NCBI GenBank assembly: GCA_964057225.1
Contig: OZ059896.1
Location: 16,306,001-16,370,000, forward strand
DNA: 64,000 bases
Direction of reading: 5' to 3'
From: Auanema rhodensis
Taxonomy: Eukaryota > Animalia > Nematoda
Translations under genes and position numbers: made by a program
Notes under the pieces: generated by a model
Database searches by the model: none
What the model was told of the DNA's origin: nothing
The model's input: only the letters and a program-made list of their open reading frames with translations
Shown here: positions 6,311-35,342 of the stretch, piece by piece
Layout: each line of letters opens with the position of its first letter
Position numbering within the stretch: the stretch's first letter is position 1

Positions 6311-6420
6311 ATTTGCATATTATGGAAGAATGTTCCACGTGAAAAGACGTCAATTTTCAAAATCAAACTAAAACGAACGGTTGCACTGCATACATATTCT
6401 GAAAAGAAAGGTAAGCATTC

Positions 6421-6539
6421 GCTTACGACCATACCACGTTGAAAGTACGCCATCCCGTCCGATCTGGCAAGTCAAGCAACGTTGGGCCCGGTTAGTACTT
6501 GGATCGGAGACGGCTTGGGAATCCCGGGTGCCGTAAGCT
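6421..6539 (+). rRNA. 5S rRNA (copy 5)
   Basis: Full copy. Confidence 0.98.
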
Positions 6540-6640
6540 TTTTCTTTTTCTCACTTTCTCATCTAGTTTGTAATCAGTAGTTACCTATATGGTATACGGT
6601 TATCTGGAAATGTTTTCATTTTCCGAGACAATTCTTAGAC

Positions 6641-6781
6641 AGCTTTGCGCAGTGGCGATAACGTGACCAATGAGGCTTTGCCGAGGTGCGTTTATTGCTG
6701 GTTGAAAACTTTTCCCAATTACCCGCGATATTCCCTGAAACATGGGTGATATACGCAATTTTTGAATGCCTGATAAGGCTG
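6641..6781 (+). ncRNA. U4 snRNA (copy 5)
   Basis: Full copy. Confidence 0.95.
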
Positions 6782-6891
6782 ATTTGCATATTATGGAAAA
6801 ATGTTCCACGTGAAAAGACGTCAATTTTCAAAATCAAACTAAAACGAACGGTTGCACTGCATACATATTCTGAAAAGAAAGGTAAGCATTC

Positions 6892-7010
6892 GCTTACGAC
6901 CATACCACGTTGAAAGTACGCCATCCCGTCCGATCTGGCAAGTCAAGCAACGTTGGGCCCGGTTAGTACTTGGATCGGAGACGGCTTGGGAATCCCGGGT
7001 GCCGTAAGCT
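6892..7010 (+). rRNA. 5S rRNA (copy 6)
   Basis: Full copy. Confidence 0.98.
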
Positions 7011-7111
7011 TTTTCTTTTTCTCACTTTCTCATCTAGTTTGTAATCAGTAGTTACCTATATGGTATACGGTTATCTGGAAATGTTTTCATTTTCCGAGAC
7101 AATTCTTAGAC

Positions 7112-7252
7112 AGCTTTGCGCAGTGGCGATAACGTGACCAATGAGGCTTTGCCGAGGTGCGTTTATTGCTGGTTGAAAACTTTTCCCAATTACCCGCGAT
7201 ATTCCCTGAAACATGGGTGATATACGCAATTTTTGAATGCCTGATAAGGCTG
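7112..7252 (+). ncRNA. U4 snRNA (copy 6)
   Basis: Full copy. Confidence 0.95.
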
Positions 7253-7362
7253 ATTTGCATATTATGGAAGAATGTTCCACGTGAAAAGACGTCAATTTTC
7301 AAAATCAAACTAGAACGAACGGTTGCACTGCATACATATTCTGAAAAGAAAGGTAAGCATTA

Positions 7363-7481
7363 GCTTACGACCATACCACGTTGAAAATACGCCATCCCGT
7401 CCGATCTGGCAAGTCAAGCAACGTTGGGCCCGGTTAGTACTTGGATCGGAGACGGCTTGGGAATCCCGGGTGCCGTAAGCT
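7363..7481 (+). rRNA. 5S rRNA (copy 7)
   Basis: Full copy. Confidence 0.98.
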
Positions 7482-7582
7482 TTTTCTTTTTCTCATTTTC
7501 TCATAAAGTTTGTAATCAGTAGTTACCTATAGGGTATACGGTTAACTAGAAATGTTTTCATTTTCCGAGACAATTCTTAGAC

Positions 7583-7723
7583 AGCTTTGCGCAGTGGCGA
7601 TAACGTGACCAATGAGGCTTTGCCGAGGTGCGTTTATTGCTGGTTGAAAACTTTTCCCAATTACCCGCGATATTCCCTGAAACATGGGTGATATACGCAA
7701 TTTTTGAATGCCTGATAAGGCTG
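7583..7723 (+). ncRNA. U4 snRNA (copy 7)
   Basis: Full copy. Confidence 0.95.
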
Positions 7724-7833
7724 ATTTGCATATTATGGAAGAATGTTCCACGTGAAAAGACGTCAATTTTCAAAATCAAACTAAAACGAACGGTTGCACT
7801 GCATACATATTCTGAAAAGAAAGGTAAGCATTC

Positions 7834-7952
7834 GCTTACGACCATACCACGTTGAAAGTACGCCATCCCGTCCGATCTGGCAAGTCAAGCAACGTTGGGC
7901 CCGGTTAGTACTTGGATCGGAGACGGCTTGGGAATCCCGGGTGCCGTAAGCT
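7834..7952 (+). rRNA. 5S rRNA (copy 8)
   Basis: Full copy. Confidence 0.98.
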
Positions 7953-8053
7953 TTTTCTTTTTCTCACTTTCTCATCTAGTTTGTAATCAGTAGTTACCTA
8001 TATGGTATACGGTTATCTGGAAATGTTTTCATTTTCCGAGACAATTCTTAGAC

Positions 8054-8194
8054 AGCTTTGCGCAGTGGCGATAACGTGACCAATGAGGCTTTGCCGAGGT
8101 GCGTTAATTGCTGGTTGAAAACTTTTCCCAATTACCCGCGATATTCCCTGAAACATGGGTGATATACGCAATTTTTGAATGCCTGATAAGGCTG
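8054..8194 (+). ncRNA. U4 snRNA (copy 8)
   Basis: Full copy; variant GCGTTAATTGC. Confidence 0.95.
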
Positions 8195-8304
8195 ATTTGC
8201 ATATTATGGAAGAATGTTCCACGTGAAAAGACGTCAATTTTCAAAATCAAACTAAAACGAACGGTTGCACTGCATACATATTCTGAAAAGAAAGGTAAGC
8301 ATTC

Positions 8305-8423
8305 GCTTACGACCATACCACGTTGAAAGTACGCCATCCCGTCCGATCTGGCAAGTCAAGCAACGTTGGGCCCGGTTAGTACTTGGATCGGAGACGGCTT
8401 GGGAATCCCGGGTGCCGTAAGCT
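8305..8423 (+). rRNA. 5S rRNA (copy 9)
   Basis: Full copy. Confidence 0.98.
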
Positions 8424-8524
8424 TTTTCTTTTTCTCACTTTCTCATCTAGTTTGTAATCAGTAGTTACCTATATGGTATACGGTTATCTGGAAATGTTTT
8501 CATTTTCCGAGACAATTCTTAGAC

Positions 8525-8665
8525 AGCTTTGCGCAGTGGCGATAACGTGACCAATGAGGCTTTGCCGAGGTGCGTTTATTGCTGGTTGAAAACTTTTCCC
8601 AATTACCCGCGATATTCCCTGAAACATGGGTGATATACGCAATTTTTGAATGCCTGATAAGGCTG
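8525..8665 (+). ncRNA. U4 snRNA (copy 9)
   Basis: Full copy. Confidence 0.95.
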
Positions 8666-8775
8666 ATTTGCATATTATGGAAGAATGTTCCACGTGAAAA
8701 GACGTCAATTTTCAAAATCAAACTAAAACGAACGGTTGCACTGCATACATATTCTGAAAAGAGAGGTAAGCATTC

Positions 8776-8894
8776 GCTTACGACCATACCACGTTGAAAG
8801 TACGCCATCCCGTCCGATCTGGCAAGTCAAGCAACGTTGGGCCCGGTTAGTACTTGGATCGGAGACGGCTTGGGAATCCCGGGTGCCGTAAGCT
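8776..8894 (+). rRNA. 5S rRNA (copy 10)
   Basis: Full copy. Confidence 0.98.
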
Positions 8895-8995
8895 TTTTCT
8901 TTTTCTCACTTTCTCATCTAGTTTGTAATCAGTAGTTACCTATATGGTATACGGTTATCTGGAAATGTTTTCATTTTCCGAAACAATTCTTAGAC

Positions 8996-9136
8996 AGCTT
9001 TGCGCAGTGGCGATAACGTGACCAATGAGGCTTTGCCGAGGTGCGTTTATTGCTGGTTGAAAACTTTTCCCAATTACCCGCGATATTCCCTGAAACATGG
9101 GTGATATACGCAATTTTTGAATGCCTGATAAGGCTG
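8996..9136 (+). ncRNA. U4 snRNA (copy 10)
   Basis: Full copy. Confidence 0.95.
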
Positions 9137-9246
9137 ATTTGCATATTATGGAAGAATGTTCCACGTGAAAAGACGTCAATTTTCAAAATCAAACTAGAAC
9201 GAACGGTTGCACTGCATACATATTCTGAAAAGAAAGGTAAGCATTC

Positions 9247-9365
9247 GCTTACGACCATACCACGTTGAAAATACGCCATCCCGTCCGATCTGGCAAGTCA
9301 AGCAACGTTGGGCCCGGTTAGTACTTGGATCGGAGACGGCTTGGGAATCCCGGGTGCCGTAAGCT
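9247..9365 (+). rRNA. 5S rRNA (copy 11)
   Basis: Full copy. Confidence 0.98.
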
Positions 9366-9466
9366 TTTTCTTTTTCTCACTTTCTCATCTAGTTTGTAAT
9401 CAGTAGTTACCTATATGGTATACGGTTATCTGGAAATGTTTTCATTTTCCGAGACAATTCTTAGAC

Positions 9467-9607
9467 AGCTTTGCGCAGTGGCGATAACGTGACCAATGAG
9501 GCTTTGCCGAGGTGCGTTTATTGCTGGTTGAAAACTTTTCCCAATTACCCGCGATATTCCCTGAAACATGGGTGATATACGCAATTTTTGAATGCCTGAT
9601 AAGGCTG
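9467..9607 (+). ncRNA. U4 snRNA (copy 11)
   Basis: Full copy. Confidence 0.95.
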
Positions 9608-9717
9608 ATTTGCATATTATGGAAGAATGTTCCACGTGAAAAGACGTCAATTTTCAAAATCAAACTAGAACGAACGGTTGCACTGCATACATATTCTGAA
9701 AAGAAAGGTAAGCATTC

Positions 9718-9836
9718 GCTTACGACCATACCACGTTGAAAATACGCCATCCCGTCCGATCTGGCAAGTCAAGCAACGTTGGGCCCGGTTAGTACTTGGA
9801 TCGGAGACGGCTTGGGAATCCCGGGTGCCGTAAGCT
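9718..9836 (+). rRNA. 5S rRNA (copy 12)
   Basis: Full copy. Confidence 0.98.
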
Positions 9837-9937
9837 TTTTCTTTTTCTCATTTTCTCATAAAGTTTGTAATCAGTAGTTACCTATAGGGTATACGGTTAA
9901 CTAGAAATGTTTTCATTTTCCGAGACAATTCTTAGAC

Positions 9938-10078
9938 AGCTTTGCGCAGTGGCGATAACGTGACCAATGAGGCTTTGCCGAGGTGCGTTTATTGCTGGTT
10001 GAAAACTTTTCCCAATTACCCGCGATATTCCCTGAAACATGGGTGATATACGCAATTTTTGAATGCCTGATAAGGCTG
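9938..10078 (+). ncRNA. U4 snRNA (copy 12)
   Basis: Full copy. Confidence 0.95.
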
Positions 10079-10174
10079 ATTTGCATATTATGGAAGAATG
10101 TTCCACGTGAAAAGACGTCAATTTTCAAAATCAAACTAAAACGAACGGTTGCACTGCATACATATTCTGAAAAG

Positions 10175-10540
10175 CGTTCCATTATGCTCCTACGTATATT
10201 GAACAGACCATTGTAGTCTGCTCAACTACGCGTATAGTATTCCATAAGTGTAGCGGTATGGAAACAGAGCATAAGGATTACATAAGATAAGGAAATATAT
10301 AGGTTTATTATACACAATACAATATCATTACAATACATTAACACAAGGATAAAGTAAACTACATTTACAAGACAAAGACTAATATATAAGATTAACTAAG
10401 TTAGATGCAAACCGTCCATGGGCTTGCAAAGGGGCGAACTCCCGAATAGGGGCATGAGGGAAGGCGGTGCCATTCCTCATTCCTCTAGTCGGTCTGGCTC
10501 TAACCCTGCAGTTACATATATAGAGTCTCCGAATGGAACG
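10175..10540 (-). repeat. 3' LTR of the gag-env-pol element
   Basis: Direct repeat of 21883-22248; termini CGTTCCATT...AATGGAACG; preceded on - strand by polypurine GAAAAAGGG-CA. Confidence 0.96.
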
Positions 10541-11246
10541 TGCCCTTTTTCAAAGATTGTCGCGACCTCGCGATATTTTAAACAAAAATTTGGGCTTATA
10601 TGTAACTGAGTTTTAGAGTTCAATTGTTTTAGCTTCACAATAACTATAGTATGATAGAGTTTTAGTTAGTATACAAACAAAATTACAATAATTTATAAGA
10701 AGGGTTCAATATAATATGAAGGGACGATGAATTAGAATATTATTAATTTCATAAATTAATTATCTTAATATTCAAGCATTTCCTAATAGAGATTGTAGAA
10801 TAAAGGGGCTAGTAATGAATGGGAATATGTTATTATTTTGACTAATGGTCTCAAGAAGTACTCATTTCTAAATTGAACCGAGATTATGATTTAATAATGT
10901 GTCTCCATATGTCTCCCAGAGTGAATCCTTGATTACTAATGGAGACTACCACTTAAGATGAAATTGTGGTTGATACGCCTACCAGTGTTCATCTCATCTT
11001 ATTTGGAGAGGCACATGGAGCTCGGATGGTTGTCAAAATGTCCTCTAGTCCGCATAGGATTACGGTAACTTGGAACCATTAGTCATAACATCTCCTCGTT
11101 TAGAATTTGCCTTATTTTTCCTTTCTCAATCTCTATTAAATGCTATTTTTATTTTGAATGTTATTTAGCATTAATTTTTTTTTTTTTTTTTTTAATTCAT
11201 CGTTATTTTGTTACAATAATTTAAATAACGTAGCATTATCTTGTTG

Positions 11247-14200
11247 TTATTCTTCTTCATTCCTCGGAAGCCATATTTCGTCTTCATTTTCATCTTCTGG
11301 CTCTGTATCTATGCTATCCTTGTTGTTCCTGTTGATCACTTCTATTATTTCGATGTCGCTATCTTCTTCTGCTTGACTTTCTCGAAACCTTGCGCGAGTG
11401 TTGTAAGAGATGTTTTGTGAAGCAGGAGAGAAGATTTTCAAGTTATCTTTGTGGATATCTTGTAGTTTTCCTGATGAATTTCTGATTTGAACTTTTGATC
11501 CTTCTACGTTGATGACTTCGCATGGTCCATCATAGCTTTTCCGAAGCTTTTGGCCGATTTGGTGTGATTTTATAGTCGTCATCACCATGTCGCCCGGTTG
11601 AATGTCTCTATGGTGTGCTCTTTGCGTTCTATCTTTCTTCTTTTTCGCATTTTCTTGATTTTTAGCTATGCGGTTCTTTATTATTTCGTCTCTCTTGTCC
11701 ATATCTGGTCTTCTTTGGAGTAATTCTTCAGAAATTTCTTGAATTTTGGTGATCGTTTCTGGTAATTCAGCGTCCATTGACATTCTGCATTCTTTACCGA
11801 ATAATGCAATGTATGGCGCAATCCCTGTAGTCGCGTGCTGAATATTGTTAATAGCAAAAGTGATTTTTGGTAATACAGTATCCCAGTCACTAAGGTCCTC
11901 TTTTAAGTAGTGGGTTAATCCTTCTTCGAGGGTTCGGTGAAGTCTTTCCACTTGTCCATTTGAGTTCTTTTGGTGTGGTAGTGTTGGTTCATGTTTGATT
12001 CCAAGTTTAGTACACATTTCTTCGAACTTTTTAGATACAAAGTTTGAACCTCTATCGGTGATCAAGCGATGGGGTGGTCCAAAAATGTAAACGAAATGTC
12101 TTAGAAATCGATCAATTGTGATTTCCGTTGTTATTTGTGGTACAGCAATTGTTGTTGACCATTTTGTAAATGCGTCTTGCATGGTAATGACGTAGGTACA
12201 GTTTCTTTTTGAAGGGGGAAATGGTCCCATTACGTCCATGTGGACTCGTTCAAATGGCTTGCTTGGTATCTCAAAATGACCTATTGGTTGTACCGTCATG
12301 GAATGTGGATCTTTTTTTCTTTGAGCACATTTAATGCAGTTCTTGATGAATATAGTAATGTCGTTCTGCATATTTGTCCAATAGAATCTTCTTAGAATTG
12401 CTTCTTTTGTTTTAATAATTCCTTGATGTGCTGCAATTGTAGGATCCTCATGAAAAACTTTGATTATTTCCTCAATTATGGGGTGTTCTTGTGGTATTAC
12501 GATAGCGGGTTGTGGCTTTTTGTCTGTTGGTTTTGTATAGAGCAAGTCATTTATGACACAATATCTGTCATTAGCTGTCATGTTCTTTTGTGCTCTATAT
12601 TCAATCTCCGCTATCGTCCGTTTAATCCAAGGGGTGCTTAGTTGAATTTCCTTTATTGTTGGTGTATTTATGGCGTTAATGTGAATTTCTTCCATTTTCT
12701 TCTTCTTTGTTTCCGGCTTAGCATCGTTAGCTTCTTCACCTATATATCGAGATAGAGCATCGCATACTTTATTTAATTGGCCTGCGCGATATTTTATTTC
12801 AATATCATATTCTTGGATGACCAGCTGGAACTTCGCAAGACGACCAAATAAGTCTCTGCGTGTCATTAAGCTGGTAAGAGGTCGATGGTCCGTAATACAT
12901 ATAGTATGAGTTCCAAGAATGTATGTACGGAATTGATTTAATGCATATACAAGGCCTAATGCTTCTATCTCGATTGGTGCGTAGTTACGTTCGGCTTTAA
13001 CTAGTTTTCTGCTTGCAAATGCGATAGGGTGTAGATTTTTCAGAGGTTGTTTTGGATCTTCCGGTTGTAATAATACAGCACCTATGGCGATGTTACTACC
13101 GTCGCTTTCAACTATAAACAAGCGGTCCGATTTAGGTGGGCTTAAAACGGGTGCCTGTATTAAACTTCTTTTAAGGAGGTCTAAAGCTTCTTGATGTTTG
13201 TTTTCCCATTTGAATTCAGTATCTGCCTTTGTCAGATCGTATAAAGGGCTTGCGATACGTGCAAAATCTTTCATGAATTTGCGAAAGAATCCAACCATTC
13301 CCAAGAATGCTCGTACACCTGTTGCATTCTTTGGTGCCGGATAATCTTGTATGGCGGCGACTTTTTGAGGGTCAGGTTTTATACCTTGACGTCCTACAAT
13401 AAGTCCTAGAAATTTCACTTCTGGTTGAGCAAAAGCGCATTTCTTAAGCTTTATCTTCATTCCCAATTCTTCTACTGCTTGCAGTAAATCATCGATATCT
13501 TTGAGATGTTGTTCTCTTGTATCAGATATAACTAATAGATCGTCCAAATAAACAAATAGTTTACAAGAACATTTACTTTGCAAATACCTTACTGCTGTTT
13601 GAAAGGTATGAGGGGCTCCACAAAGGCCCATCGGCATCCGTTTGTACTGGTATGTGCCGGATGTGGTCGTAAATGCTGTTAGTGGTCGATCTGATTTTCT
13701 CAAGGATATTTGAAAAAATCCTGACACTAAATCGAAGTTTGAGAAAAATTGGGCGCCTGCTGCCAAATCAACTATGTCAGAAATGCTTGGAATGACATAA
13801 GTTTGCTTGCGTGTGACATTATTTAAAGCTCGAAAATCTGTCACAAACCTATACGTGTCATCTTTCTTCTTAACTAGTACTACAGGGCTATTAAATAGAG
13901 ATGTAGAAGGCTCTATTATGCCTTGCTCAAGCATTTCTTTGACTTGTTTTTCAATTTCTTCCTGTTTTCCTAAGGGAATACGTGTTATTCTCGGCTTTGG
14001 CATATCCATATCTGTTCTCAATGGTATGGTATGCTCTATAGGACCTTTAAATAAGCCTATTTTCCTGTCCTCGTTAAGAAATGCCTCACGATGGCTTTCA
14101 ATTATTTTTGTAAGCTCATGTTTTTCTTCTTTCGTGAGATCAGCATTCTCTAGATCAAGATCTTTTATGAAGTCTCTTGGAAAATATGGTAGTTTACTCT

Positions 14201-17200
14201 CCCAATCGGCCTCTGGCGGAACATATGGTAGAATTGGCTTATGCTTAAAGGGTTCACAAGCCGGAATTTCTCCAATTATTGCCTGTCCGATGACTGAATT
14301 AGCTTCCATAGCTATTGTTTCATCGGTATTGTTACGGAACATAACATATACTCCACTGGTATCACGAAACGCAGTTGGATATAATGATTTTAATGCGCTT
14401 CCACTATCCCCTAAGACAACCACTTCGTTAGATTCTAGTGGTTTATCTGTCTTTATTGGGATAGGTGCCTCTTCATCAGGCTTTAATGTTTTTGTTCTTA
14501 AATTAATGATATTCACAGTTATCTCCGTATGCTTAATAGATTCGTTTCCTATTAATGGGATGGCATTGTTTCCAATCTCCAACCTCTTCTTGGATGGTTT
14601 AAGGCTGACGTCGATGTTTTCGCTGTCAAGCGCTTTCATGAAATCTAGTCCAATTAAAGCGGGAGCAGGACAGTCATGATCGTTTGAGACCAAAAAGGTG
14701 TGTTCGATCTCGTAACCGGCAATTTCAATTACAAGATTTATCTTTCCATAAAATGTGAAAGTGGACTTGTTGGCTGCCATCGCTACTAAATGTCTCTTCT
14801 TGACATTTTCGGCCATGTTCAGATATTTGAGGGTGGAGAGCCTAACATATGACACTGATGAGCCTGAATCCCATAAAGCTAAAATCAGTTTATCTTCAAC
14901 TGATATATATATTAATGGTAACTTTGTTTCCGCTGATACAATAGAAGCAACAAATGGTATTGCGATTGGAATAAATGTTACTAAAGCAGGATAGTATTGC
15001 TTCATGATGTTATCTGGCATCTGTTGGTCTGGGCGGCTTACAAGTTCCAATGTTTCTTCATAGCTTGGGGGCTCATTATCTATTTCGTGGACATGCATTA
15101 CGGTTAGTGGAGTGGCTCTGAAGAACCAAAATTTAGCAACAACGAAAAGAATTATTAATACTGCGGCAATCGTAACCATTGATCCTATGAAGATGAGTGT
15201 TCTCTCAATTGATCCTATTAGAAATTGCTTTACGCTAGTCCAGGCGGAAGTTGTGAACTCAGCTGCTTTAGAGATATAGTCACTGCCCTTTTTCAAAAGA
15301 TTAAAGGCGGACGTAATTTTTGGATCGTTGTGAATAGTATGTAAAACATGGTTCTGTCGTATGGATGCTAAACTTGCTCCATATGCAATAGCTGTTGACA
15401 TTGAGTAAACTCTCAATGATAAATTGGTGTATAAGTTAGCGCCTGTGAACTTTAAAGGTGTTAATTGGTGGTATTGCGCTTTATCAAAGAGTGATATTGG
15501 TTTTACTTCAACCGATCCATTTATATTTATCCATTCTCCATTTTGATAGTATACATCTGTGGGTACATGTTCGCAATCTATCTCTTTTCCATGTGTTAAT
15601 AAGTCTCTTGATCCTGGAGCAGCAAAATATAATCTCTCATCTTCTGTTATTACTGGTGTTTCCAAATAGCATGTATCATTGATCTTATGATTATGATAAA
15701 CAGCTTTAGGTTGAAGAGGTAGGCATATATGAACATGAACTATATCGCTGCCTACGAAACGGGCTGCAATATCCTCTCTTCCTAAAATAGTCCTCATTGC
15801 TATTGTAGGTTCTATGTGTAAAATAGAACGCCATAGCTCGAGGTATCTATTTTGAATCTCACATATGGATTCATAAGATTCCATGAAATGTTTCTGTAGC
15901 TCTTCTTGTATGAGTGTTGTTGTATATTGTAGATGATCTTGAGCTATTCTGCGAGATACGTTGAGGTTGAATTGTATTTCGTTGTTCACTTTTGACGCTG
16001 TATACGTTGCCTGAGCCTGAATTTCTCTGGTTTCTACGGGTGGAGATGATGTTCTTTGTTTCCTTAAGATTCGTGACGCCGTGTCAGTGACTGTTGCTAA
16101 TGTTGTTGGCGAGAGAGTCGTAGTTATCGCGGCTGTTGTCGTCTCAACTGTGGTTGTCGTCGGAATCCGAGTCGTATGGCTTTTAGTTGTCTCCTGAACT
16201 AGTGAAGCGGGTTTGTCCGTTGTTGTCGTTAATGACAGTCTTCTAGTCAGATAAGGCGGTGTTTCAATATCCTCTAACAGTGGTAAAAATGTTTTTATAA
16301 GTAGCTGGCGTGTATCTGCGCTTGGGTTTTGAATGCGAGGGTGGGGCCCTATCGATATACCGTAGTTAGAATCTTTATCTCGATATAATTTGTTGGTATC
16401 TGGCACATTGATTGTTAATTGTCGGAACTTTTCATCATCTACGGCTGCTGCTGTTTTATTTGGCCTTATTACTCGCAATGTCATCAAGTTATGGTATAAG
16501 TAAAGAGTGTTTCTAAGTACTATACGCTCATCAGCATTGTCAGTTGTTAGAGTTGGTCGGATCGGCGGCATGTTCACAAAGGATTTTAAAACCTCTTGCC
16601 TTGATGGTACCGACAGATTGTTTTCAAATATTACCGGTGTATAAGCTAACTCCATCGCTATGCTTTCGGCTCTTTCACGGTAGGATCCGTCTTTTTCTAG
16701 CAGTTTTTCGTCAAATTCGTGTGCTGTTAATCTGTCACCTATCTGTTCTAATAATTGTTGTGAGGTTAAATACCGTATAGCGCCGCGAGTGGTTGCTGCC
16801 AGTTCCTTTTGCGCAAGAAAATAAAGTATTGCTTCCTCAGGGTCGTGTATTTCGTATGTTTGAAGGAAACGTTGTATGGATTTATCAGATACGGGACTTC
16901 TTAAGAAGAAATAAAACTTCTCGGGATGTGCTGAAACCCAGTCAATAATTGAATATGAAGGGTTGACAGCTCGTCTGGCCTTTATAAGCGGTATTATCTG
17001 ATAAATACCAGGATTACTCATCACCGGTCGTAAGAAAGGATAAGGACAAATATTTAATATTAAAGTTTCAAAATCTTCCTGTTTTTGTATCCACTCCTTG
17101 TTTAATTCAACCGTGCATTCCGCAATTGCTCTTTTATCTCTTTTCGCCGGAAGTTTCTTATATTCTCTCTCTATTAAAACATGGATATTGGTGTCATTTG

Positions 17201-19952
17201 GGTACTGTGGTAAGAGAATGTAATTGCCAGTTGTGGTGTGGAAGATTGGCTGTTTAAAACAAGAAGATATTTGCTTCGGTATCTCTTTTTGATCGATTAC
17301 AAGGGCTGATTGAGTGGTTGGTAACAGAATAATGCCGTCTCCAATTATCACATCATATTCACTCATGTCGATATAGTTGCATCGATATTCATAAGGCTGT
17401 TTCTCCCATATGATGATTGAGGTATCTGATGCACATTCTCCATGATGCGCTAAGCATCCTTCAGTATTTAGTATTAAATTGGAGATTATAGTTTCATCTG
17501 GCATCCGTGTCATAACCCCTCTTTCGATAACCAATCTGGCTTTCTCTTCACATAGCTCATTATTAAAAGATCGGCCTGGCGAGAAGGAAGGCTCGTCAGT
17601 TGCATATGTTATGCTGTCGATCTTCTTTAATTCACTCCAATTCCATCTTCTATCTCTCACTGCCAGTCTGCATTCTGCAGCTGGTATCTTTTCAATTCTC
17701 GCTATCGTTGTATTGGTATCTCTAAGGAACAAAAGGTCTCTGATACACATTTTATGAATTTCTTTGGAGCATCTCCATGCATCCCATTCATGTGCCGTTT
17801 GATTCCTTGTATAAAGATGAACTTTTGTTCGTAAGATATGCTTTATTGGTGGTAATAAGCATTTTCGGAGAGATGGGGGACGGAGAAGGGCTCCTCCAGT
17901 AGCTTTAGTACATAGCTGGTATGCTTCAGCTGTTGTAACCAGTGATAAGATTACTGATAAAGCTACGGCTAAAGTCAAAGGAGATATCAGAGTCAAATTA
18001 TTGACTCTTGAGCCTCTACCTCTGCCTCTATTGTTGTTATTTCCCCTAAAGGTACTGTTATTTCTCTGTCTATTATTGCTCATTTCTTGATTTTGTGATG
18101 CATTATGGCTTCTTTGATACCCATTTTGATTTTGATTCTGATAATTTCGACCGCGGTCACCAAAATTGCGGTTCCTAGCAAATGGGTTTTGGAAATTCCA
18201 GCCTTTTTGATTTTTTGAAAATTTATGATAATTTTGATTGTTTTGAAAGTTTGGATGATAATTGTTATAATTATTATAATTTTGATAATTTTTATTATTA
18301 AAAGATTGATAACCTCTTGCCATACCTCTCCCACCATTGTTTCTGCGCGGGGGGAAAGTTCTTTCAATTGCGTTAACCAATAGCGCCTGAGGGTCTGCTA
18401 CTTGGTTTGCAATTGATTCCTCCCAGCGAGCACTATCAACAGCCTCAGCAAAAGTTTTGGGTTTTGCTCGAATTACCCCTGGGCGTATCGTATTTTTCAA
18501 GCCTCTCAAAAATGTGGACCTCAGAATGTGATCTTTATGAGTATCACTATTAGAGAAAGCATTTAAGCTGAGGTTTCTTAACGTTTGTGCAAAACCATCA
18601 ATTGATAAATCGCCTTGAGTGCTGTTTTGAAGTGTGATAAGGGCAGGGTCTTGATTGTATTCGGGACACAGCTTGGATGTTAACTCTTCTATTAGGGTAA
18701 CCCAAGGTCCAGCAGTTCTGACCTTGTCAGGTAGCTCTAAATAAGCTTCCTCTGCTCTATCATTTTTCAATAGTAATGGTAAAATAGTTAGTCTTTCGGG
18801 CATCACTAAGCCTAAGGCGTTAGAAAAGGTATTAAACTTTGCCACGAAATCTCTAAAGTTACGACTTCCGTCGTATATGGGGCAATAAGGTGAGCTTAAT
18901 GCGTGCGCAATGGTAGATTTACCAGCTCCCGGAAGACGTGGTGTCTCCGTCATGGTTGGTATATCCTCAGGGTATGTGCGAGATGACGTAATCCCTTTAC
19001 TGCCTGAGCTTCTCGCCGTTAAATTCTTACCTCCCTTTTTCGAGTTACCAGATGTTGGATAACTAATGGTAGGGGCGGCTGAGGAGAACCGCTTCCCTGG
19101 GAGTTTGATAATTCGACTCGTTGCCTGAGGCGTCGAATGTATTGATACGCTTGAGCTGGGTATAGCGCTATCTGACTTATTAAGGGTTGGGTTGGAGGAT
19201 ACGTGAAGAGAGTTATCAACTTGTTCTGTTGTTACCTCCCCTGGAGACAAATTCAAAACTTTTATTAAGCGAGCTGTTAAAGATTTCTTACTTTTGAACT
19301 TATCAGTAGTTAGTGATAAGGGCAAAACTTCGGTAATTTCCTGATTTGGTTCTACGGGATTATTAGAGGTTGAGCGCCTACGCGGTGTATTAGTTTTTCT
19401 TTTATTAATTTTTTTAGAATCAAGCTTTTTCGAATCAAGCTTATCAGTGATAACTGATAAGGGTGATTTGCGAATAGTGAGAGATGAGGTTTTATTAAGT
19501 TGTGAGTTTTCTATCGGAGTGGAAAATGCCTGCGGTGTTAGAGTTAGTTCAAAAGAAGATGCAAGATCGTTATCAGTATTAACTGATAAAGTTGATAAGT
19601 TTAGGTGGGGAGTGGCTGGTGAAGTATTAGAGGTTATTTGTTTTGGTTTTTGAATTTTTTGAATCTTTTTATTACTTTTAAAAGAGTGTACCTTTGGAGT
19701 TGAAGCTGAAGTTTGAATATTGTAGTCCTGAATATAGAAATCAGGGTCCTCCTCGGTGTTGTCCGGAGGTGAATACGTGCCTTCTCGAGGAATGAAGGTT
19801 TTCTCGACTTTGGGTTTTACCTCTTGTTCAGGCTCTTCAATCTGAACACTGAGGAGTCGAGTGCGGCTTCTGGTTCGACTGGCGACTGCGATGTCGTCAC
19901 TGGACTCAGAAGGGTATAGAGCAGGGACGGCCGAAGAGTATCTTCGTGCCAC
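11247..19952 (-). CDS. Gag-Env-Pol polyprotein (2901 aa from GTG; first ATG at 18953)
   Basis: Capsid motifs (PIYDGS...QGDLSIDGFAQTL...FLRGL); hydrophobic signal ~17922-17997; Cys-rich gB-like ectodomain; TM ~15120-15200; protease LWDSGS (~14862-14870); RT MPMGL and YLDD (~13539-13550); RNase H (ESDGS, EIEALG, TDHRPL); integrase HHCC plus DVMGP/TDRGS/VERLHR; GPY/F-like GPCEV. Confidence 0.96.
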   Translation of the reverse strand: MARRYSSAVPALYPSESSDDIAVASRTRSRTRLLSVQIEEPEQEVKPKVEKTFIPREGTYSPPDNTEEDPDFYIQDYNIQTSASTPKVHSFKSNKKIQKIQKPKQITSNTSPATPHLNLSTLSVNTDNDLASSFELTLTPQAFSTPIENSQLNKTSSLTIRKSPLSVITDKLDSKKLDSKKINKRKTNTPRRRSTSNNPVEPNQEITEVLPLSLTTDKFKSKKSLTARLIKVLNLSPGEVTTEQVDNSLHVSSNPTLNKSDSAIPSSSVSIHSTPQATSRIIKLPGKRFSSAAPTISYPTSGNSKKGGKNLTARSSGSKGITSSRTYPEDIPTMTETPRLPGAGKSTIAHALSSPYCPIYDGSRNFRDFVAKFNTFSNALGLVMPERLTILPLLLKNDRAEEAYLELPDKVRTAGPWVTLIEELTSKLCPEYNQDPALITLQNSTQGDLSIDGFAQTLRNLSLNAFSNSDTHKDHILRSTFLRGLKNTIRPGVIRAKPKTFAEAVDSARWEESIANQVADPQALLVNAIERTFPPRRNNGGRGMARGYQSFNNKNYQNYNNYNNYHPNFQNNQNYHKFSKNQKGWNFQNPFARNRNFGDRGRNYQNQNQNGYQRSHNASQNQEMSNNRQRNNSTFRGNNNNRGRGRGSRVNNLTLISPLTLAVALSVILSLVTTAEAYQLCTKATGGALLRPPSLRKCLLPPIKHILRTKVHLYTRNQTAHEWDAWRCSKEIHKMCIRDLLFLRDTNTTIARIEKIPAAECRLAVRDRRWNWSELKKIDSITYATDEPSFSPGRSFNNELCEEKARLVIERGVMTRMPDETIISNLILNTEGCLAHHGECASDTSIIIWEKQPYEYRCNYIDMSEYDVIIGDGIILLPTTQSALVIDQKEIPKQISSCFKQPIFHTTTGNYILLPQYPNDTNIHVLIEREYKKLPAKRDKRAIAECTVELNKEWIQKQEDFETLILNICPYPFLRPVMSNPGIYQIIPLIKARRAVNPSYSIIDWVSAHPEKFYFFLRSPVSDKSIQRFLQTYEIHDPEEAILYFLAQKELAATTRGAIRYLTSQQLLEQIGDRLTAHEFDEKLLEKDGSYRERAESIAMELAYTPVIFENNLSVPSRQEVLKSFVNMPPIRPTLTTDNADERIVLRNTLYLYHNLMTLRVIRPNKTAAAVDDEKFRQLTINVPDTNKLYRDKDSNYGISIGPHPRIQNPSADTRQLLIKTFLPLLEDIETPPYLTRRLSLTTTTDKPASLVQETTKSHTTRIPTTTTVETTTAAITTTLSPTTLATVTDTASRILRKQRTSSPPVETREIQAQATYTASKVNNEIQFNLNVSRRIAQDHLQYTTTLIQEELQKHFMESYESICEIQNRYLELWRSILHIEPTIAMRTILGREDIAARFVGSDIVHVHICLPLQPKAVYHNHKINDTCYLETPVITEDERLYFAAPGSRDLLTHGKEIDCEHVPTDVYYQNGEWININGSVEVKPISLFDKAQYHQLTPLKFTGANLYTNLSLRVYSMSTAIAYGASLASIRQNHVLHTIHNDPKITSAFNLLKKGSDYISKAAEFTTSAWTSVKQFLIGSIERTLIFIGSMVTIAAVLIILFVVAKFWFFRATPLTVMHVHEIDNEPPSYEETLELVSRPDQQMPDNIMKQYYPALVTFIPIAIPFVASIVSAETKLPLIYISVEDKLILALWDSGSSVSYVRLSTLKYLNMAENVKKRHLVAMAANKSTFTFYGKINLVIEIAGYEIEHTFLVSNDHDCPAPALIGLDFMKALDSENIDVSLKPSKKRLEIGNNAIPLIGNESIKHTEITVNIINLRTKTLKPDEEAPIPIKTDKPLESNEVVVLGDSGSALKSLYPTAFRDTSGVYVMFRNNTDETIAMEANSVIGQAIIGEIPACEPFKHKPILPYVPPEADWESKLPYFPRDFIKDLDLENADLTKEEKHELTKIIESHREAFLNEDRKIGLFKGPIEHTIPLRTDMDMPKPRITRIPLGKQEEIEKQVKEMLEQGIIEPSTSLFNSPVVLVKKKDDTYRFVTDFRALNNVTRKQTYVIPSISDIVDLAAGAQFFSNFDLVSGFFQISLRKSDRPLTAFTTTSGTYQYKRMPMGLCGAPHTFQTAVRYLQSKCSCKLFVYLDDLLVISDTREQHLKDIDDLLQAVEELGMKIKLKKCAFAQPEVKFLGLIVGRQGIKPDPQKVAAIQDYPAPKNATGVRAFLGMVGFFRKFMKDFARIASPLYDLTKADTEFKWENKHQEALDLLKRSLIQAPVLSPPKSDRLFIVESDGSNIAIGAVLLQPEDPKQPLKNLHPIAFASRKLVKAERNYAPIEIEALGLVYALNQFRTYILGTHTICITDHRPLTSLMTRRDLFGRLAKFQLVIQEYDIEIKYRAGQLNKVCDALSRYIGEEANDAKPETKKKKMEEIHINAINTPTIKEIQLSTPWIKRTIAEIEYRAQKNMTANDRYCVINDLLYTKPTDKKPQPAIVIPQEHPIIEEIIKVFHEDPTIAAHQGIIKTKEAILRRFYWTNMQNDITIFIKNCIKCAQRKKDPHSMTVQPIGHFEIPSKPFERVHMDVMGPFPPSKRNCTYVITMQDAFTKWSTTIAVPQITTEITIDRFLRHFVYIFGPPHRLITDRGSNFVSKKFEEMCTKLGIKHEPTLPHQKNSNGQVERLHRTLEEGLTHYLKEDLSDWDTVLPKITFAINNIQHATTGIAPYIALFGKECRMSMDAELPETITKIQEISEELLQRRPDMDKRDEIIKNRIAKNQENAKKKKDRTQRAHHRDIQPGDMVMTTIKSHQIGQKLRKSYDGPCEVINVEGSKVQIRNSSGKLQDIHKDNLKIFSPASQNISYNTRARFRESQAEEDSDIEIIEVINRNNKDSIDTEPEDENEDEIWLPRNEEE

Positions 19953-20365
19953 TTTGGAATCACTCTTGGTTCGGAAAAACCGCGAGTGTTTCGTTATATG
20001 GGGGATGTTGACGTTGAATGAGTGACAAGAAATTCGGGTCGGTTATAGGAAAAGTAAGAAACGTTTGAAGATTGAGACGTGGCGTCTTTCGCCGAGAATC
20101 GTTATTAGATGAGAAAGAGTTTTAAAATCTTGGCCTGAGATCTGGCTCCGCCTATCTACCGTATTCTCTTTTCTTTATTCTATTTCACAGATGTTCATCA
20201 ATTATAAATTTTTTTTGGTCTTCGCTCTTTCTAGCCTCAATCTTAATACTTTACTCTAATTGAATTCTTGAAAGTATGAGAGAGATTTTCAGTCGTTTTA
20301 TGTCCCCTTTTTATGCATAAGAATCTTTATATTTGTAGAGCTGAAAAAAAAAAATAAATCAAAGA

Positions 20366-20899
20366 ATGGCTTATGAAGGTCTATCGGGAATGACTTTTGT
20401 CTTGAGGAAGCTGTACGCTGACCTCGTCTTGTATGATCAAGACGAAGTGTTAGCTTATAGGCCGCACCCAGACATAATTAAGATGGTTGGTTAAAACAAA
20501 GAAACATGTTATCTTAATAAGAATTTTTAGTTTATTGAGGATTTAAAGATGCATTATCTGGGAAGGGGATTAGTAAACTTCTCCCTAATGCAGGAAATAG
20601 CGGATGAGGTTGCAGCTATCCGGCGATGGTGCCTCACCGACTTGTGCGCGCATTGGTATGAAAACCCAAATCTGGTCGCATCCCCTTGGAATTGGTATGA
20701 GCATAAGTCTCATGATTTTTATGATTATATGTCTAAAATTTTGTTTAAAATTTATTTATTTTATGAACAGTCTCCTATGGGCTTATTGCTAAGGACCTCT
20801 GCGGATTCGGTGTATTCGCAGTATTTAGAGCCTAGCGATGAGCCCATCTCACAGCCTATAGAATTTGTGAGACAGTTGCATTTTAAATGGGGCTTTTAA
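20366..20899 (+). CDS. Antisense two-exon accessory gene inside the gypsy element (exons 20366-20485 and 20531-20899; 162 aa, unknown function)
   Basis: AGA-ATG-G start; 40 codons; 45-nt GTTGGT...TTTTTAG phase-0 intron that removes an in-frame stop; exon 2 in frame with the 116-aa ORF; AATAAA at 20916-20921. Confidence 0.65.
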
Positions 20900-21869
20900 C
20901 AATTGTTTCATATATAATAAATACTTAATTTCACTCATTTGTTCTCTCTCTCTTTTTTTTTTTTTTCCATAACACAAACTTTGGTCGAGCTTATTAATAA
21001 AGAAGGAGTGCGTGCGCCTTGGGAAAATGGCTCATGTGCACGTTATTATTAAAAGCCGTGGGCGATTCTTTTTCGGAATGATTTTGGCATGCTAATGAGA
21101 TTCCGAGAATATTTAAAAAGATTGCTCATTTTACTAATGGACTGAGACCAAAGCTCGTTTATAAAACGCAATTTTTTTCTTTAAACCATTCTACTAATTT
21201 ATAGAATATTACAATATGAATACTACGGTAGGTGTGTGGGAATATCTTATGATGTTAGCAACAAAAATGAGCTGAGGAAGGTGACACATTCTACGGAGAA
21301 GAAAACATCCGTAGCCCATGTGCTTTCGCCAAAATGACCTGACAGGCAATAAAATTTGTGCCAGGATTTTTCGGACTAGTGTGGTCTATTCTCACAATCA
21401 AAAAAAAAATAAAAACCGAATAACGGCTCCCGCAAAAATATTTAGTTAGCATGCTCTTTTACGCCTGAATTTAACTTTCAAATCTCTAGTCCTGACCACA
21501 ATAAAATATTAAACTTTGTGCGCTTTCAAAATTTCATTCTAACTCCTCGTTGCCAAATAATAATGTAATCAAAATTTCGTTTGGTGAAATTGTCCCCTAT
21601 TTCGATCCAAACGTCCTCAAAAAAAAATGCAAGAGAAGCGGTGCAGGATACGGTATTATAAGGGTGGACACTCAGACGGTTTTATGAGTGGGGACAGCGG
21701 GTGAAATTTCAAAATTATGTAGTCCTAGCTCTCTAAAAGAGAGATCCCTTGTACCTGCACCTTATACAAGTTGGCGCCCTCATTATGTTGCTAACCGTGG
21801 AGGAAGTTTTAATTTAGATATCAAAATATGGACTTTTTATGCGAGTTTTTGCGACAAAAATGAGTTCGA

Positions 21870-21882
21870 GGTGGAACCTCCA
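21870..21882 (-). other. Primer-binding site (tRNA-Gln 3' end, 13 nt)
   Basis: + strand GGTGGAACCTCCA adjacent to the 5' LTR. Confidence 0.85.
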
Positions 21883-22248
21883 CGTTCCATTATGCTCCTA
21901 CGTATATTGAACAGACCATTGTAGTCTGCTCAACTACGCGTATAGTATTCCATAAGTGTAGCGGTATGGAAACAGAGCATAAGGATTACATAAGATAAGG
22001 AAATATATAGGTTTATTATACACAATACAATATCATTACAATACATTAACACAAGGATAAAGTAAACTACATTTACAAGACAAAGACTAATATATAAGAT
22101 TAACTAAGTTAGATGCAAACCGTCCATGGGCTTGCAAAGGGGCGAACTCCCGAATAGGGGCATGAGGGAAGGCGGTGCCATTCCTCATTCCTCTAGTCGG
22201 TCTGGCTCTAACCCTGCAGTTACATATATAGAGTCTCCGAATGGAACG
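21883..22248 (-). repeat. 5' LTR of the gag-env-pol element
   Basis: Direct repeat of 10175-10540. Confidence 0.96.
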
Positions 22249-22266
22249 AAAGAAAGGTAAGCATTC

Positions 22267-22385
22267 GCTTACGACCATACCACGTTGAAAGTACGCCATC
22301 CCGTCCGATCTGGCAAGTCAAGCAACGTTGGGCCCGGTTAGTACTTGGATCGGAGACGGCTTGGGAATCCCGGGTGCCGTAAGCT
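22267..22385 (+). rRNA. 5S rRNA (copy 13)
   Basis: Full copy; sequence upstream of -18 replaced by the LTR. Confidence 0.97.
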
Positions 22386-22486
22386 TTTTCTTTTTCTCAC
22401 TTTCTCATCTAGTTTGTAATCAGTAGTTACCTATATGGTATACGGTTATCTGGAAATGTTTTCATTTTCCGAGACAATTCTTAGAC

Positions 22487-22627
22487 AGCTTTGCGCAGTG
22501 GCGATAACGTGACCAATGAGGCTTTGCCGAGGTGCGTTTATTGCTGGTTGAAAACTTTTCCCAATTACCCGCGATATTCCCTGAAACATGGGTGATATAC
22601 GCAATTTTTGAATGCCTGATAAGGCTG
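22487..22627 (+). ncRNA. U4 snRNA (copy 13)
   Basis: Full copy. Confidence 0.95.
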
Positions 22628-22737
22628 ATTTGCATATTATGGAAGAATGTTCCACGTGAAAAGACGTCAATTTTCAAAATCAAACTAAAACGAACGGTTG
22701 CACTGCATACATATTCTGAAAAGAGAGGTAAGCATTC

Positions 22738-22856
22738 GCTTACGACCATACCACGTTGAAAGTACGCCATCCCGTCCGATCTGGCAAGTCGAGCAACGTT
22801 GGGCCCGGTTAGTACTTGGATCGGAGACGGCTTGGGAATCCCGGGTGCCGTAAGCT
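22738..22856 (+). rRNA. 5S rRNA (copy 14)
   Basis: Full copy; box A variant AGTCGAGC. Confidence 0.97.
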
Positions 22857-22957
22857 TTTTCTTTTTCTCACTTTCTCATCTAGTTTGTAATCAGTAGTTA
22901 CCTATATGGTATACGGTTATCTGGAAATGTTTTCATTTTCCGAGACAATTCTTAGAC

Positions 22958-23098
22958 AGCTTTGCGCAGTGGCGATAACGTGACCAATGAGGCTTTGCCG
23001 AGGTGCGTTTATTGCTGGTTGAAAACTTTTCCCAATTACCCGCGATATTCCCTGAAACATGGGTGATATACGCAATTTTTGAATGCCTGATAAGGCTG
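22958..23098 (+). ncRNA. U4 snRNA (copy 14)
   Basis: Full copy. Confidence 0.95.
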
Positions 23099-23208
23099 AT
23101 TTGCATATTATGGAAGAATGTTCCACGTGAAAAGACGTCAATTTTCAAAATCAAACTAGAACGAACGGTTGCACTGCATACATATTCTGAAAAGAAAGGT
23201 AAGCATTC

Positions 23209-23327
23209 GCTTACGACCATACCACGTTGAAAATACGCCATCCCGTCCGATCTGGCAAGTCAAGCAACGTTGGGCCCGGTTAGTACTTGGATCGGAGACG
23301 GCTTGGGAATCCCGGGTGCCGTAAGCT
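23209..23327 (+). rRNA. 5S rRNA (copy 15)
   Basis: Full copy. Confidence 0.98.
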
Positions 23328-23428
23328 TTTTCTTTTTCTCACTTTCTCATCTAGTTTGTAATCAGTAGTTACCTATATGGTATACGGTTATCTGGAAATG
23401 TTTTCATTTTCCGAGACAATTCTTAGAC

Positions 23429-23569
23429 AGCTTTGCGCAGTGGCGATAACGTGACCAATGAGGCTTTGCCGAGGTGCGTTTATTGCTGGTTGAAAACTTT
23501 TCCCAATTACCCGCGGTATTCCCTGAAACATGGGTGATATACGCAATTTTTGAATGCCTGATAAGGCTG
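23429..23569 (+). ncRNA. U4 snRNA (copy 15)
   Basis: Full copy; one A>G change (CCGCGGTAT). Confidence 0.95.
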
Positions 23570-23679
23570 ATTTGCATATTATGGAAGAATGTTCCACGTG
23601 AAAAGACGTCAATTTTCAAAATCAAACTAAAACGAACGGTTGCACTGCATACATATTCTGAAAAGAAAGGTAAGCATTC

Positions 23680-23798
23680 GCTTACGACCATACCACGTTG
23701 AAAGTACGCCATCCCGTCCGATCTGGCAAGTCAAGCAACGTTGGGCCCGGTTAGTACTTGGATCGGAGACGGCTTGGGAATCCCGGGTGCCGTAAGCT
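23680..23798 (+). rRNA. 5S rRNA (copy 16)
   Basis: Full copy. Confidence 0.98.
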
Positions 23799-23899
23799 TT
23801 TTCTTTTTCTCACTTTCTCATCTAGTTTGTAATCAGTAGTTACCTATATGGTATACGGTTATCTGGAAATGTTTTCATTTTCCGAGACAATTCTTAGAC

Positions 23900-24040
23900 A
23901 GCTTTGCGCAGTGGCGATAACGTGACCAATGAGGCTTTGCCGAGGTGCGTTTATTGCTGGTTGAAAACTTTTCCCAATTACCCGCGATATTCCCTGAAAC
24001 ATGGGTGATATACGCAATTTTTGAATGCCTGATAAGGCTG
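23900..24040 (+). ncRNA. U4 snRNA (copy 16)
   Basis: Full copy. Confidence 0.95.
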
Positions 24041-24150
24041 ATTTGCATATTATGGAAGAATGTTCCACGTGAAAAGACGTCAATTTTCAAAATCAAACTA
24101 AAACGAACGGTTGCACTGCATACATATTCCGAAAAGAAAGGTAAGCATTC

Positions 24151-24269
24151 GCTTACGACCATACCACGTTGAAAGTACGCCATCCCGTCCGATCTGGCAA
24201 GTCAAGCAACGTTGGGCCCGGTTAGTACTTGGATCGGAGACGGCTTGGGAATCCCGGGTGCCGTAAGCT
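24151..24269 (+). rRNA. 5S rRNA (copy 17)
   Basis: Full copy. Confidence 0.98.
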
Positions 24270-24370
24270 TTTTCTTTTTCTCATTTTCTCATCTAGTTTG
24301 TAATCAGTAGTTACCTATATGGTATACGGTTAACTAGAAATGTTTTCATTTTCCGAGACAATTCTTAGAC

Positions 24371-24511
24371 AGCTTTGCGCAGTGGCGATAACGTGACCAA
24401 TGAGGCTTTGCCGAGGTGCGTTTATTGCTGGTTGAAAACTTTTCCCAATTACCCGCGATATTCCCTGAAACATGGGTGATATACGCAATTTTTGAATGCC
24501 TGATAAGGCTG
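24371..24511 (+). ncRNA. U4 snRNA (copy 17)
   Basis: Full copy. Confidence 0.95.
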
Positions 24512-24621
24512 ATTTGCATATTATGGAAGAATGTTCCACGTGAAAAGACGTCAATTTTCAAAATCAAACTAGAACGAACGGTTGCACTGCATACATATTC
24601 TGAAAAGAAAGGTAAGCATTC

Positions 24622-24740
24622 CCTTACGACCATACCACGTTGAAAATACGCCATCCCGTCCGATCTGGCAAGTCAAGCAACGTTGGGCCCGGTTAGTACT
24701 TGGATCGGAGACGGCTTGGGAATCCCGGGTGCCGTAAGCT
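24622..24740 (+). rRNA. 5S rRNA (copy 18; G+1>C variant)
   Basis: Full-length but begins CCTTACGAC. Confidence 0.93.
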
Positions 24741-24841
24741 TTTTCTTTTTCTCATTTTCTCATAAAGTTTGTAATCAGTAGTTACCTATAGGGTATACGG
24801 TTAACTAGAAATGTTTTCATTTTCCGAGACAATTCTTAGAC

Positions 24842-24982: not shown

Positions 24983-25092
24983 ATTTGCATATTATGGAAG
25001 AATGTTCCACGTGAAAAGACGTCAATTTTCAAAATCTAACTAAAACGAACGGTTGCACTGCATACATATTCCGAAAAGAAAGGTAAGCATTC

Positions 25093-32100: not shown

Positions 32101-35342
<3,242 letters not shown>

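Follow-up and report, generated by a model that had tools for sequence, protein, structure and literature searches.

A recent Ty3/gypsy insertion in Auanema rhodensis with a predicted gB-type envelope between Gag and Pol in one reading frame

Introduction

How might a retroelement make and use an envelope protein that is encoded between its gag and pol regions in a single reading frame? The question is raised by a stretch of 64,000 nucleotides from the nematode Auanema rhodensis (GCA_964057225.1, contig OZ059896.1, positions 16,306,001 to 16,370,000; the window), which carries a Ty3/gypsy element of 12,074 bp on its reverse strand (10175-22248). An earlier note on this DNA had described an envelope (Env) resembling herpesvirus gB inside a Gag-Env-Pol polyprotein and had proposed a possibly infectious, membrane-threaded product. 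The GAG-ENV-POL order has been published for Nematoda, Bryozoa and Platyhelminthes, there with gB-type Env only (PMC13524379, available part). That paper, by Chary and Hayashi in eLife, gives 36 nematode elements in its supplement and credits the order to Sacco et al. 2022. Any novelty of the layout, on which the earlier note had withheld judgement, therefore falls away, the order being both published and frequent in databases; the element is a member of the nematode GAG-ENV-POL group already published. What looks undescribed is limited to an additional folded domain in Env and a likely small spliced antisense gene.

Results

The element and its reading frame

The element has the features of Metaviridae (Ty3/gypsy): two long terminal repeats (LTRs), a primer binding site (PBS), a polypurine tract, a target-site duplication, a capsid-type Gag and the pol order protease (PR), reverse transcriptase (RT), RNase H (RH) and integrase (IN). 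The 366-bp LTRs are 100% identical to each other, in agreement with the very recent insertion proposed earlier, and the element is a young, intact insertion. Minor variant contigs are found in two sequencing runs guessed to be DNA, which points to extra copies or alleles of the element. We note that the LTRs end in CG at both ends (10175-10182, 22241-22248), where CA is usual. The bases of the polypurine tract and the PBS that flank the LTRs also lengthen the inverted repeat by two bases per side.

The reverse strand of 11247-19952 encodes 2901 amino acids (aa) free of stops, and a single frame holds, in order, Gag, a signal-like stretch, Env, a transmembrane (TM) helix, PR, RT, RH and IN. Length, domain order and motifs are thus as first described (AEA|YQLC at aa 677-683, ESICEIQNR at 1361, IEPTIAMR at 1380, PGSRDL at 1446, PPSY at 1628, DSG at 1695 and YLDD at 2135). 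The start has to be revised. Position 19952 is GTG, the stop-to-stop frame begins at 20042 and has 2931 codons, and the earliest ATG, at 18953, would yield 2568 aa (11247-18953). The 363 in-frame codons upstream of this ATG are likely coding, since none of 20,000 shuffles was free of stops and the composition resembles the S/T/P/K-rich N terminus of the Gag of a neighbouring gag-only element. A continuous gag-env-pro-pol open reading frame (ORF) was reportedly described by Sacco et al. 2022, with extra small hypothetical ORFs in some members.

Pfam places PR, RT, RH, H2C2 and rve downstream of the Env matches, in the order PR-RT-RH-IN given before. Gag matches Ty3_capsid under the cutoff (E 0.0034). 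It is 32% identical over 269 aa (E 7e-21) to the Gag of the gag-only element, which itself passes Retrotrans_gag. No zinc knuckle was found in the nucleocapsid-like region of Gag. A plus-strand ORF of 253 aa opposite pol (13918-14679) has no Pfam match and was taken as a shadow of pol.

Env as a predicted gB-type fusogen

Sequence and model searches agree in assigning Env as a predicted gB-type class III fusogen, as the earlier note had suggested from a motif pattern. Pfam PF24664 (viral fusion glycoprotein) matches aa 1338-1481 above its cutoff (E 5.6e-15). In a PDB sequence search all 45 matches at E<=1 were herpesvirus gB, the best with E 2.7e-4. The ectodomain was modelled as an AlphaFold monomer using an alignment of 64 sequences. 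In the model (predicted local distance difference test score, pLDDT, 73) a confident beta-rich N-terminal part is followed by a helical insert and a disordered linker, and then by a 75-residue helix and a beta domain. Foldseek related it to gB of herpes simplex virus 1 (HSV-1; E 3.4e-11) and to glycoproteins of negative-strand RNA viruses (E 7.4e-15). With VIA-align the model matched prefusion gB of Epstein-Barr virus (EBV; Z 13.9, 371 aligned residues, root-mean-square deviation 5.9), and the N-terminal part alone gave Z 11.1 against the same protein.

An ectodomain of about 900 aa rich in cysteine had been described. The length is confirmed at 911 aa, but with 16 cysteines (1.8%) the region is not Cys-rich overall and some 400 aa of it are an insert outside the gB core. 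Across the family 14 of the 16 cysteines are kept. Assigned by analogy, candidate fusion loop 1 lies at aa 740-743, and position 741 is hydrophobic in all 43 aligned relatives. Hydropathy places the internal signal-like stretch ahead of Env at aa 654-679 and the single TM helix behind the ectodomain at aa 1587-1609, both as the earlier note had them; of 52 Gag-Env chains, 49 have a signal-like stretch ahead of Env.

The helical insert and the Thr-rich linker

Between the two halves of gB lies a linker with a median length of 54 aa; 9 of 73 proteins have one of at least 300 aa, and that of this element measures 410 aa. Part of it matches 10 of 154 proteins, and also P0163 of Auanema sp. JU1783, with good alignment. 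Folded alone, the insert is predicted to be entirely helical (pLDDT 87, predicted TM-score, pTM, 0.81). The insert has no match in Pfam or Atlas, nor in BFVD at E<=0.001. The best VIA match was to death domains (Z 6.7 over 63 residues); a death-domain identity was rejected, this Z lying below the range in which the tool is reliable. The lack of a confident fold match does not prove that the insert is a new fold. This element and each of the five relatives whose sequence includes the position have a furin-like site ahead of the insert; this element and P0003, also of Auanema sp. JU1783, have another basic site after the Thr-rich linker. We note that P0028, P0042, P0052 and P0138 carry linkers of 350-500 aa inside gB that are unlike this insert. 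Since the long linkers of other relatives do not match the insert, domains may have been captured repeatedly at the gB linker.

Variants were counted for 40 of 49 differences, in four runs. All nine differences in the insert are silent, which argues that the insert is under constraint. Those in the Thr-rich linker (16056-16232) all change an amino acid (6/6), and the linker reads as relaxed or diversifying. In the polyprotein outside these two regions 10 of 11 differences are silent; outside the Thr-rich linker as a whole the figure is 19 of 20.

Relatives and phylogeny

A search with the ectodomain gave 291 representatives at E<=0.001, and gene order was scored in the best 150 of these plus P0001, P0003 and P0005. 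Among the matches listed, the order gag, env, PR, RT, IN is found in 15 chains (this element and 14 others), env lies before PR in 55 chains and after IN in 13. An RT-IN search returned, among the matches listed, proteins of Caenorhabditis auriculariae, remanei and nigoni, Diploscapter and Auanema at 47-60% identity and with the same gB domains; Cordylochernes rows rank higher yet are only 34-35% identical. Env is present in 23 of the 119 new rows. No protein labelled Cer1 was among the 120 RT matches listed, many rows of which are without a name.

An RT tree (IQ-TREE) was built from 57 of 140 RT-bearing proteins, comprising all Env-bearing ones and 12 without Env. The element and P0163 form a sister pair (support 99/93; RT 73% identical). 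They fall in a 13-row clade (100/99) with GAG-ENV-POL proteins of Diploscapter, Caenorhabditis and Auanema, itself nested in a clade of 37 rows (100/100). The phylogeny proposed earlier as a check thus groups the element with nematode elements, and the nearest named relatives likewise fit the nematode host. The intron-containing animal genes in the window also speak for such a host. P0003 is 43-48% identical over the end of Gag, Env, the insert, PPSY, the hydrophobic stretch described below and PR, and P0163 carries the Env insert; both are partial, unannotated gene models. Metagenome and viral contigs searched with the env pattern for relatives with flanking DNA gave nothing. An RT search of contigs gave four distant loci of 4-6 kb at 35-39% identity, which were not used.

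The cytosolic tail

The segment between TM and PR has a median of 82 aa in relatives. Here it contains, between PPSY and the protease, a hydrophobic stretch (aa 1653-1676; Kyte-Doolittle hydropathy, KD, 2.19) absent from the earlier note. P[T/S]AP is found in 9 of 77 tails against 0.42 in shuffles (maximum 4), a [TSM][YF][ILV]P core in 17 of 77 against 1.3, and protease-site-like [VI]N[ASTN][VIL] in 36 of 77 against 2.4. As controls for P[T/S]AP, luminal linkers gave 2 of 109 (1.0 in shuffles) and PR-RT linkers 0 of 60. Three of the 37 pre-PR segments from chains scored as env-less carry the motif, and two of these are truncated Env-bearing elements. PPSY is common only to this element, P0003 and one distant protein.

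Table 1. Positions in the window of the element, its parts and its surroundings (leftmost position first).
Feature	Position	Strand	Details
Host tandem array	717..26277	+	471-bp units, each with one 5S rRNA and one U4 small nuclear RNA (snRNA) gene
gag-only LTR element	2083..5873	-	339-bp LTRs, 1 mismatch; target-site duplication AGAC; same PBS; 501-aa Gag
Target-site duplication AAAG	10171-10174 and 22249..22252	+	4 bp, both flanks
3' LTR	10175..10540	-	no difference from 5' LTR
Polypurine tract	10543..10551	-	3' LTR starts two bases further on
Pol	11247..14924	-	protease (DSG), RT (YLDD), RNase H, integrase (H2C2 and core), stop codon
Tail/spacer	14925..15125	-	protease-site-like VMHV, PPSY (15060-15071), hydrophobic stretch aa 1653-1676, protease-site-like VASI
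Putative TM helix	15126..15194	-	aa 1587-1609; hydropathy
Env C-terminal part, gB domains III-V-like	15195..16052	-	predicted 75-residue central helix, beta domain, membrane-proximal helices
Thr-rich linker	16053..16232	-	disordered, fast-changing; ends in RKQR (1297-1300)
Inserted domain, predicted all-helical	16386..17039	-	aa 972-1189 (~220 aa); limited to a subclade
Env N-terminal part, gB domains I/II-like	17130..17915	-	beta-rich in the model; ends in furin-like RDKR (938-941)
Internal signal-peptide-like stretch	17916..17993	-	aa 654-679; predicted cleavage AEA|Y; hydropathy
Gag	17994..18953	-	capsid and N/R/G/Q-rich nucleocapsid-like region; ends in protease-site-like VNNL
In-frame extension, probably coding	18954..20042	-	363 codons upstream of the first ATG; S/T/P/K-rich
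Likely antisense accessory gene	20366..20899	+	162 codons; exon 1 20366-20485, intron 20486-20530, exon 2 20531-20899
PBS (12-mer)	21871..21882	-	directly after 5' LTR
5' LTR	21883..22248	-	366 bp; ends CG...CG, 8-bp terminal inverted repeats

Discussion

A probable membrane-threaded polyprotein

We think it probable that the element makes a membrane-threaded Gag-Env-Pol polyprotein which crosses the endoplasmic reticulum (ER) membrane twice, buds as an enveloped particle and fuses into neighbouring, probably germline, cells. The signal stretch, the TM helix, the gB-type Env and the recent insertion on which the earlier note built this idea all stand; infectivity, topology and a 1:1:1 ratio of Gag, Env and Pol we infer. 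Gag would be made in the cytosol until the signal stretch (aa 654-679) opens translocation. Cutting by signal peptidase at AEA|Y would leave Gag anchored by the cut signal peptide, much as flavivirus and hepatitis C virus capsid proteins are. Env would fold in the lumen, trimerise and be cut at RDKR and perhaps at RKQR. These cuts would turn the helical insert and the Thr-rich linker into a separate surface piece, and a receptor-binding or shielding role is the most likely one for this piece. The TM helix (1587-1609) would halt transfer, so that Pol, still joined to the Env tail, would come back to the cytosol and could be packaged alongside Env with no frameshift needed. Through its motif (PPSY in this element, P[T/S]AP in related ones) the tail may recruit the Nedd4/ESCRT budding machinery, and after budding the element's protease would cut the VNNL-, VMHV- and VASI-like sites, freeing nucleocapsid, spacer and Pol. 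Because Pol must stay cytosolic, aa 1653-1676 presumably rests on the membrane or packs against the protease and does not cross.

Several observations weigh against this reading. Particles, fusion and topology are predictions from sequence and model, and the signal-peptide and TM calls come from hydropathy. The Pfam gB family itself, PF00606, matches aa 1338-1481 below its cutoff (E 6.3e-9, 36 bits against 43), whole-model TM-scores are low (0.16/0.23) with pTM 0.51, and candidate fusion loop 2 has a lower hydrophobicity than that of most relatives. By its hydropathy aa 1653-1676 is hydrophobic enough for a third membrane segment. PPSY, put forward earlier as a late-domain motif, is indeed in the tail but is not a family feature: PPxY occurs in 3 of 77 TM-to-protease tails against 1.6 in shuffles and was rejected as a signal conserved in the family. 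In the sister element P0163, PSAP stands in place of PPSY and the strongly hydrophobic stretch is lacking. P[T/S]AP is enriched in Gag linkers too (4 of 55, 0.35 shuffled), and the tail-motif counts come from related sequences that are not independent of descent; the enrichment in tails and Gag linkers relative to the controls suggests that a late-domain-like motif is favoured in the cytosolic spacers of the family. Gag, Env and Pol at 1:1:1 would be unusual for retroviruses. Finally, Chary and Hayashi state that it is not known how gB-type elements enter cells, and they point out that herpesvirus gB needs partner glycoproteins (PMC13524379, available part).

Other readings of the element

The particles could instead stay inside the cell and never infect another cell or animal: in germ cells they would bud into the ER or into endosomes, and Env would act as a membrane anchor or let them re-enter the same cell. 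The capsids of Cer1, which form intracellular germline particles (PMC3315495, available part), offer a precedent, and the weak second candidate fusion loop of this element would fit. Against this, the ectodomain is kept family-wide with its 14 conserved cysteines, hydrophobic loop and furin-like site, nearly all Env differences outside the Thr-rich linker are silent, and that linker, with all six differences changing the protein, resembles an exposed mucin-like region. We therefore regard a purely intracellular cycle as unlikely, though worth keeping in mind. RNA processing might also set the ratio, with spliced or trans-spliced RNAs adding Gag or a regulatory protein, or skipping Env, and the polyprotein a minor product. 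A sequence scan of the element's strand shows a strong splice acceptor at 20341 in the leader and a consensus donor at 19030 in the N-terminal extension. No ATG is present in the 363-codon extension, the array also houses a gag-only relative whose PBS is the same, and Cer1 makes a spliced, SL1-capped RNA of 2.4 kb besides its 8-kb RNA (PMC3315495, available part). The scan gave no consensus donor/acceptor pair able to remove env, however, and co-assembly of the two Gags is doubtful, since they are only 32% identical; this account seems rather improbable to us. No run recorded as RNA was among those listed; two runs guessed to be RNA (contigs only, filling 26 and 18 of 30 bins) contained no env-skipping joint and are evidence neither way. 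The higher depth of one X13 contig (11244-13416) was set aside, its edge having no splice acceptor.

It is also conceivable that aa 1653-1676 is a third membrane segment or a second signal peptide, so that the Pol of the polyprotein would be luminal and the working Pol would be made by another route. The stretch has the highest hydropathy among 54 tails (KD 2.2-2.4), and a small-residue site, VSA|E, follows it. It also contains prolines, only 4 of the 54 tails exceed KD 1.8 although the [TSM][YF][ILV]P core is found in 17 of 77, the hydrophobic run is missing in the sister P0163, and RT and IN placed in the lumen would be unable to copy the genome; such a topology is very hard to credit. From the element's place in a tandem array, where assemblies err, one might suspect that the joining of gag, env and pol reflects faulty assembly or a single nested insertion. 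Independent DNA contigs bridge gag and env (X2 16791-20354 and X8 17526-19933), two overlapping X8 contigs (15035-15707 and 13941-15064) run from Env through the tail into Pol, 14 other complete chains share the order, and at least half of the sampled words are present in 11 of 15 listed sequencing runs. An artefact is thereby refuted.

A likely spliced antisense gene in the leader

A 45-nt GT..AG intron opposite the leader is skipped in two RNA-guessed runs of one study and kept in two DNA-guessed runs. Splicing brings the ATG at 20366 into a frame of 162 codons that ends at 20899. In one variant contig all six exon differences are silent and at third positions (a transitions-only null gives this a chance of 0.002), and the insertion in the same contig falls in the intron. 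This is likely a real accessory gene. Exon 2 has no homologue among the proteins searched (lengths 67-214) and no Pfam match; an Atlas match (0.76, low recognition) was rejected as noise.

The insertion site

The element lies in a host tandem array with 21 matches to 5S and 20 to U4, the two genes of a unit being on the same strand, and the array is broken by two elements. The insertion is 18 bp upstream of a gene for 5S rRNA. The gag-only element, young by its LTRs, lies in the corresponding spacer of another unit, 76 bp upstream of the 5S gene; the LTR ends of the two are near-identical, and the smaller is likely non-autonomous and mobilised by the Pol of a relative. We note that it has CG at only one LTR end (2083-2090). 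Two insertions in the 5S-U4 array are a hint of targeting. Targeting to 5S is not established, as the chance that both fall in the same 112-bp spacer is 0.057 and the distances differ (18 against 76 bp). A literature search, including the available part of the Auanema genome preprint, gave nothing on 5S-targeted nematode LTR elements or 5S-U4 linked arrays, and nothing relevant on late domains in errantivirus Env tails. Beyond the array are a U5 gene (26376-26493, reverse strand) and host gene exons (27560-38778) for a ligand-gated ion channel, a glycosyltransferase 92, an FtsH/paraplegin-like M41 protease, a ubiquitin-conjugating enzyme and a ThiF protein (Atg7-like reading).

Significance and comparison with known systems

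With the layout itself known, the value of this element is practical and lies in its details. An intact, very recent copy in a small, likely culturable nematode would allow Gag-Env-Pol assembly to be observed in the host, and the same setting would let stand-alone fusion by a gB-type Env, without herpesvirus partners, be addressed. The constrained helical insert could be the receptor-binding part that is otherwise missing, P[T/S]AP and PPxY between TM and protease suggest a budding route for such elements, and the antisense gene and the two insertions in the 5S-U4 array are additional leads. A more far-reaching combination, namely a new receptor-binding helical subunit of undescribed fold between cleavage sites, in a fusogen without gH/gL-like partners, together with the spliced antisense gene, a budding signal in the tail and 5S/U4 safe-harbour targeting, is doubtful.

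The closest known systems are the nematode GAG-ENV-POL "errantiviruses" (PMC13524379, available part), which share gene order, gB-type Env, intact frames and LTRs. The PBS of the element is the tRNA-Gln-type 12-mer of Clat_errantivirus_4 and Ctro_errantivirus_1, two Caenorhabditis GAG-ENV-POL elements of that set. Its 36 nematode rows hold no Auanema element; two Auanema assemblies were screened there, with ENV-POL hits. The terms "polyprotein", "late domain" and "in frame" do not occur in the available main text, and the helical Env insert, the antisense gene and the 5S-U4 site do not appear in the available part of the paper.

In the genus Errantivirus as defined by the virus taxonomy committee ICTV, env lies downstream of integrase (PMC7879559), whereas here it lies between gag and PR. 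Drosophila errantiviruses such as gypsy and ZAM are likewise Metaviridae with an envelope gene; they differ in having an F-type Env (PMC13524379, available part) and env after integrase (PMC7879559). C. elegans Cer1 is also a nematode Ty3/gypsy element and has one RNA of about 8 kb for Gag and Pol; in the available part of its description no gB-type Env between gag and pol is given (PMC3315495), and it has been placed next to a flatworm element (PMC13524379, available part). With herpesvirus gB and the negative-strand RNA virus glycoproteins the predicted Env shares fold, central helix and cysteine pattern. It differs from herpesvirus gB in sitting within a retroelement polyprotein, with an insert of about 400 aa in place of the cleaved linker of gB, and in that the element encodes no partner glycoproteins.

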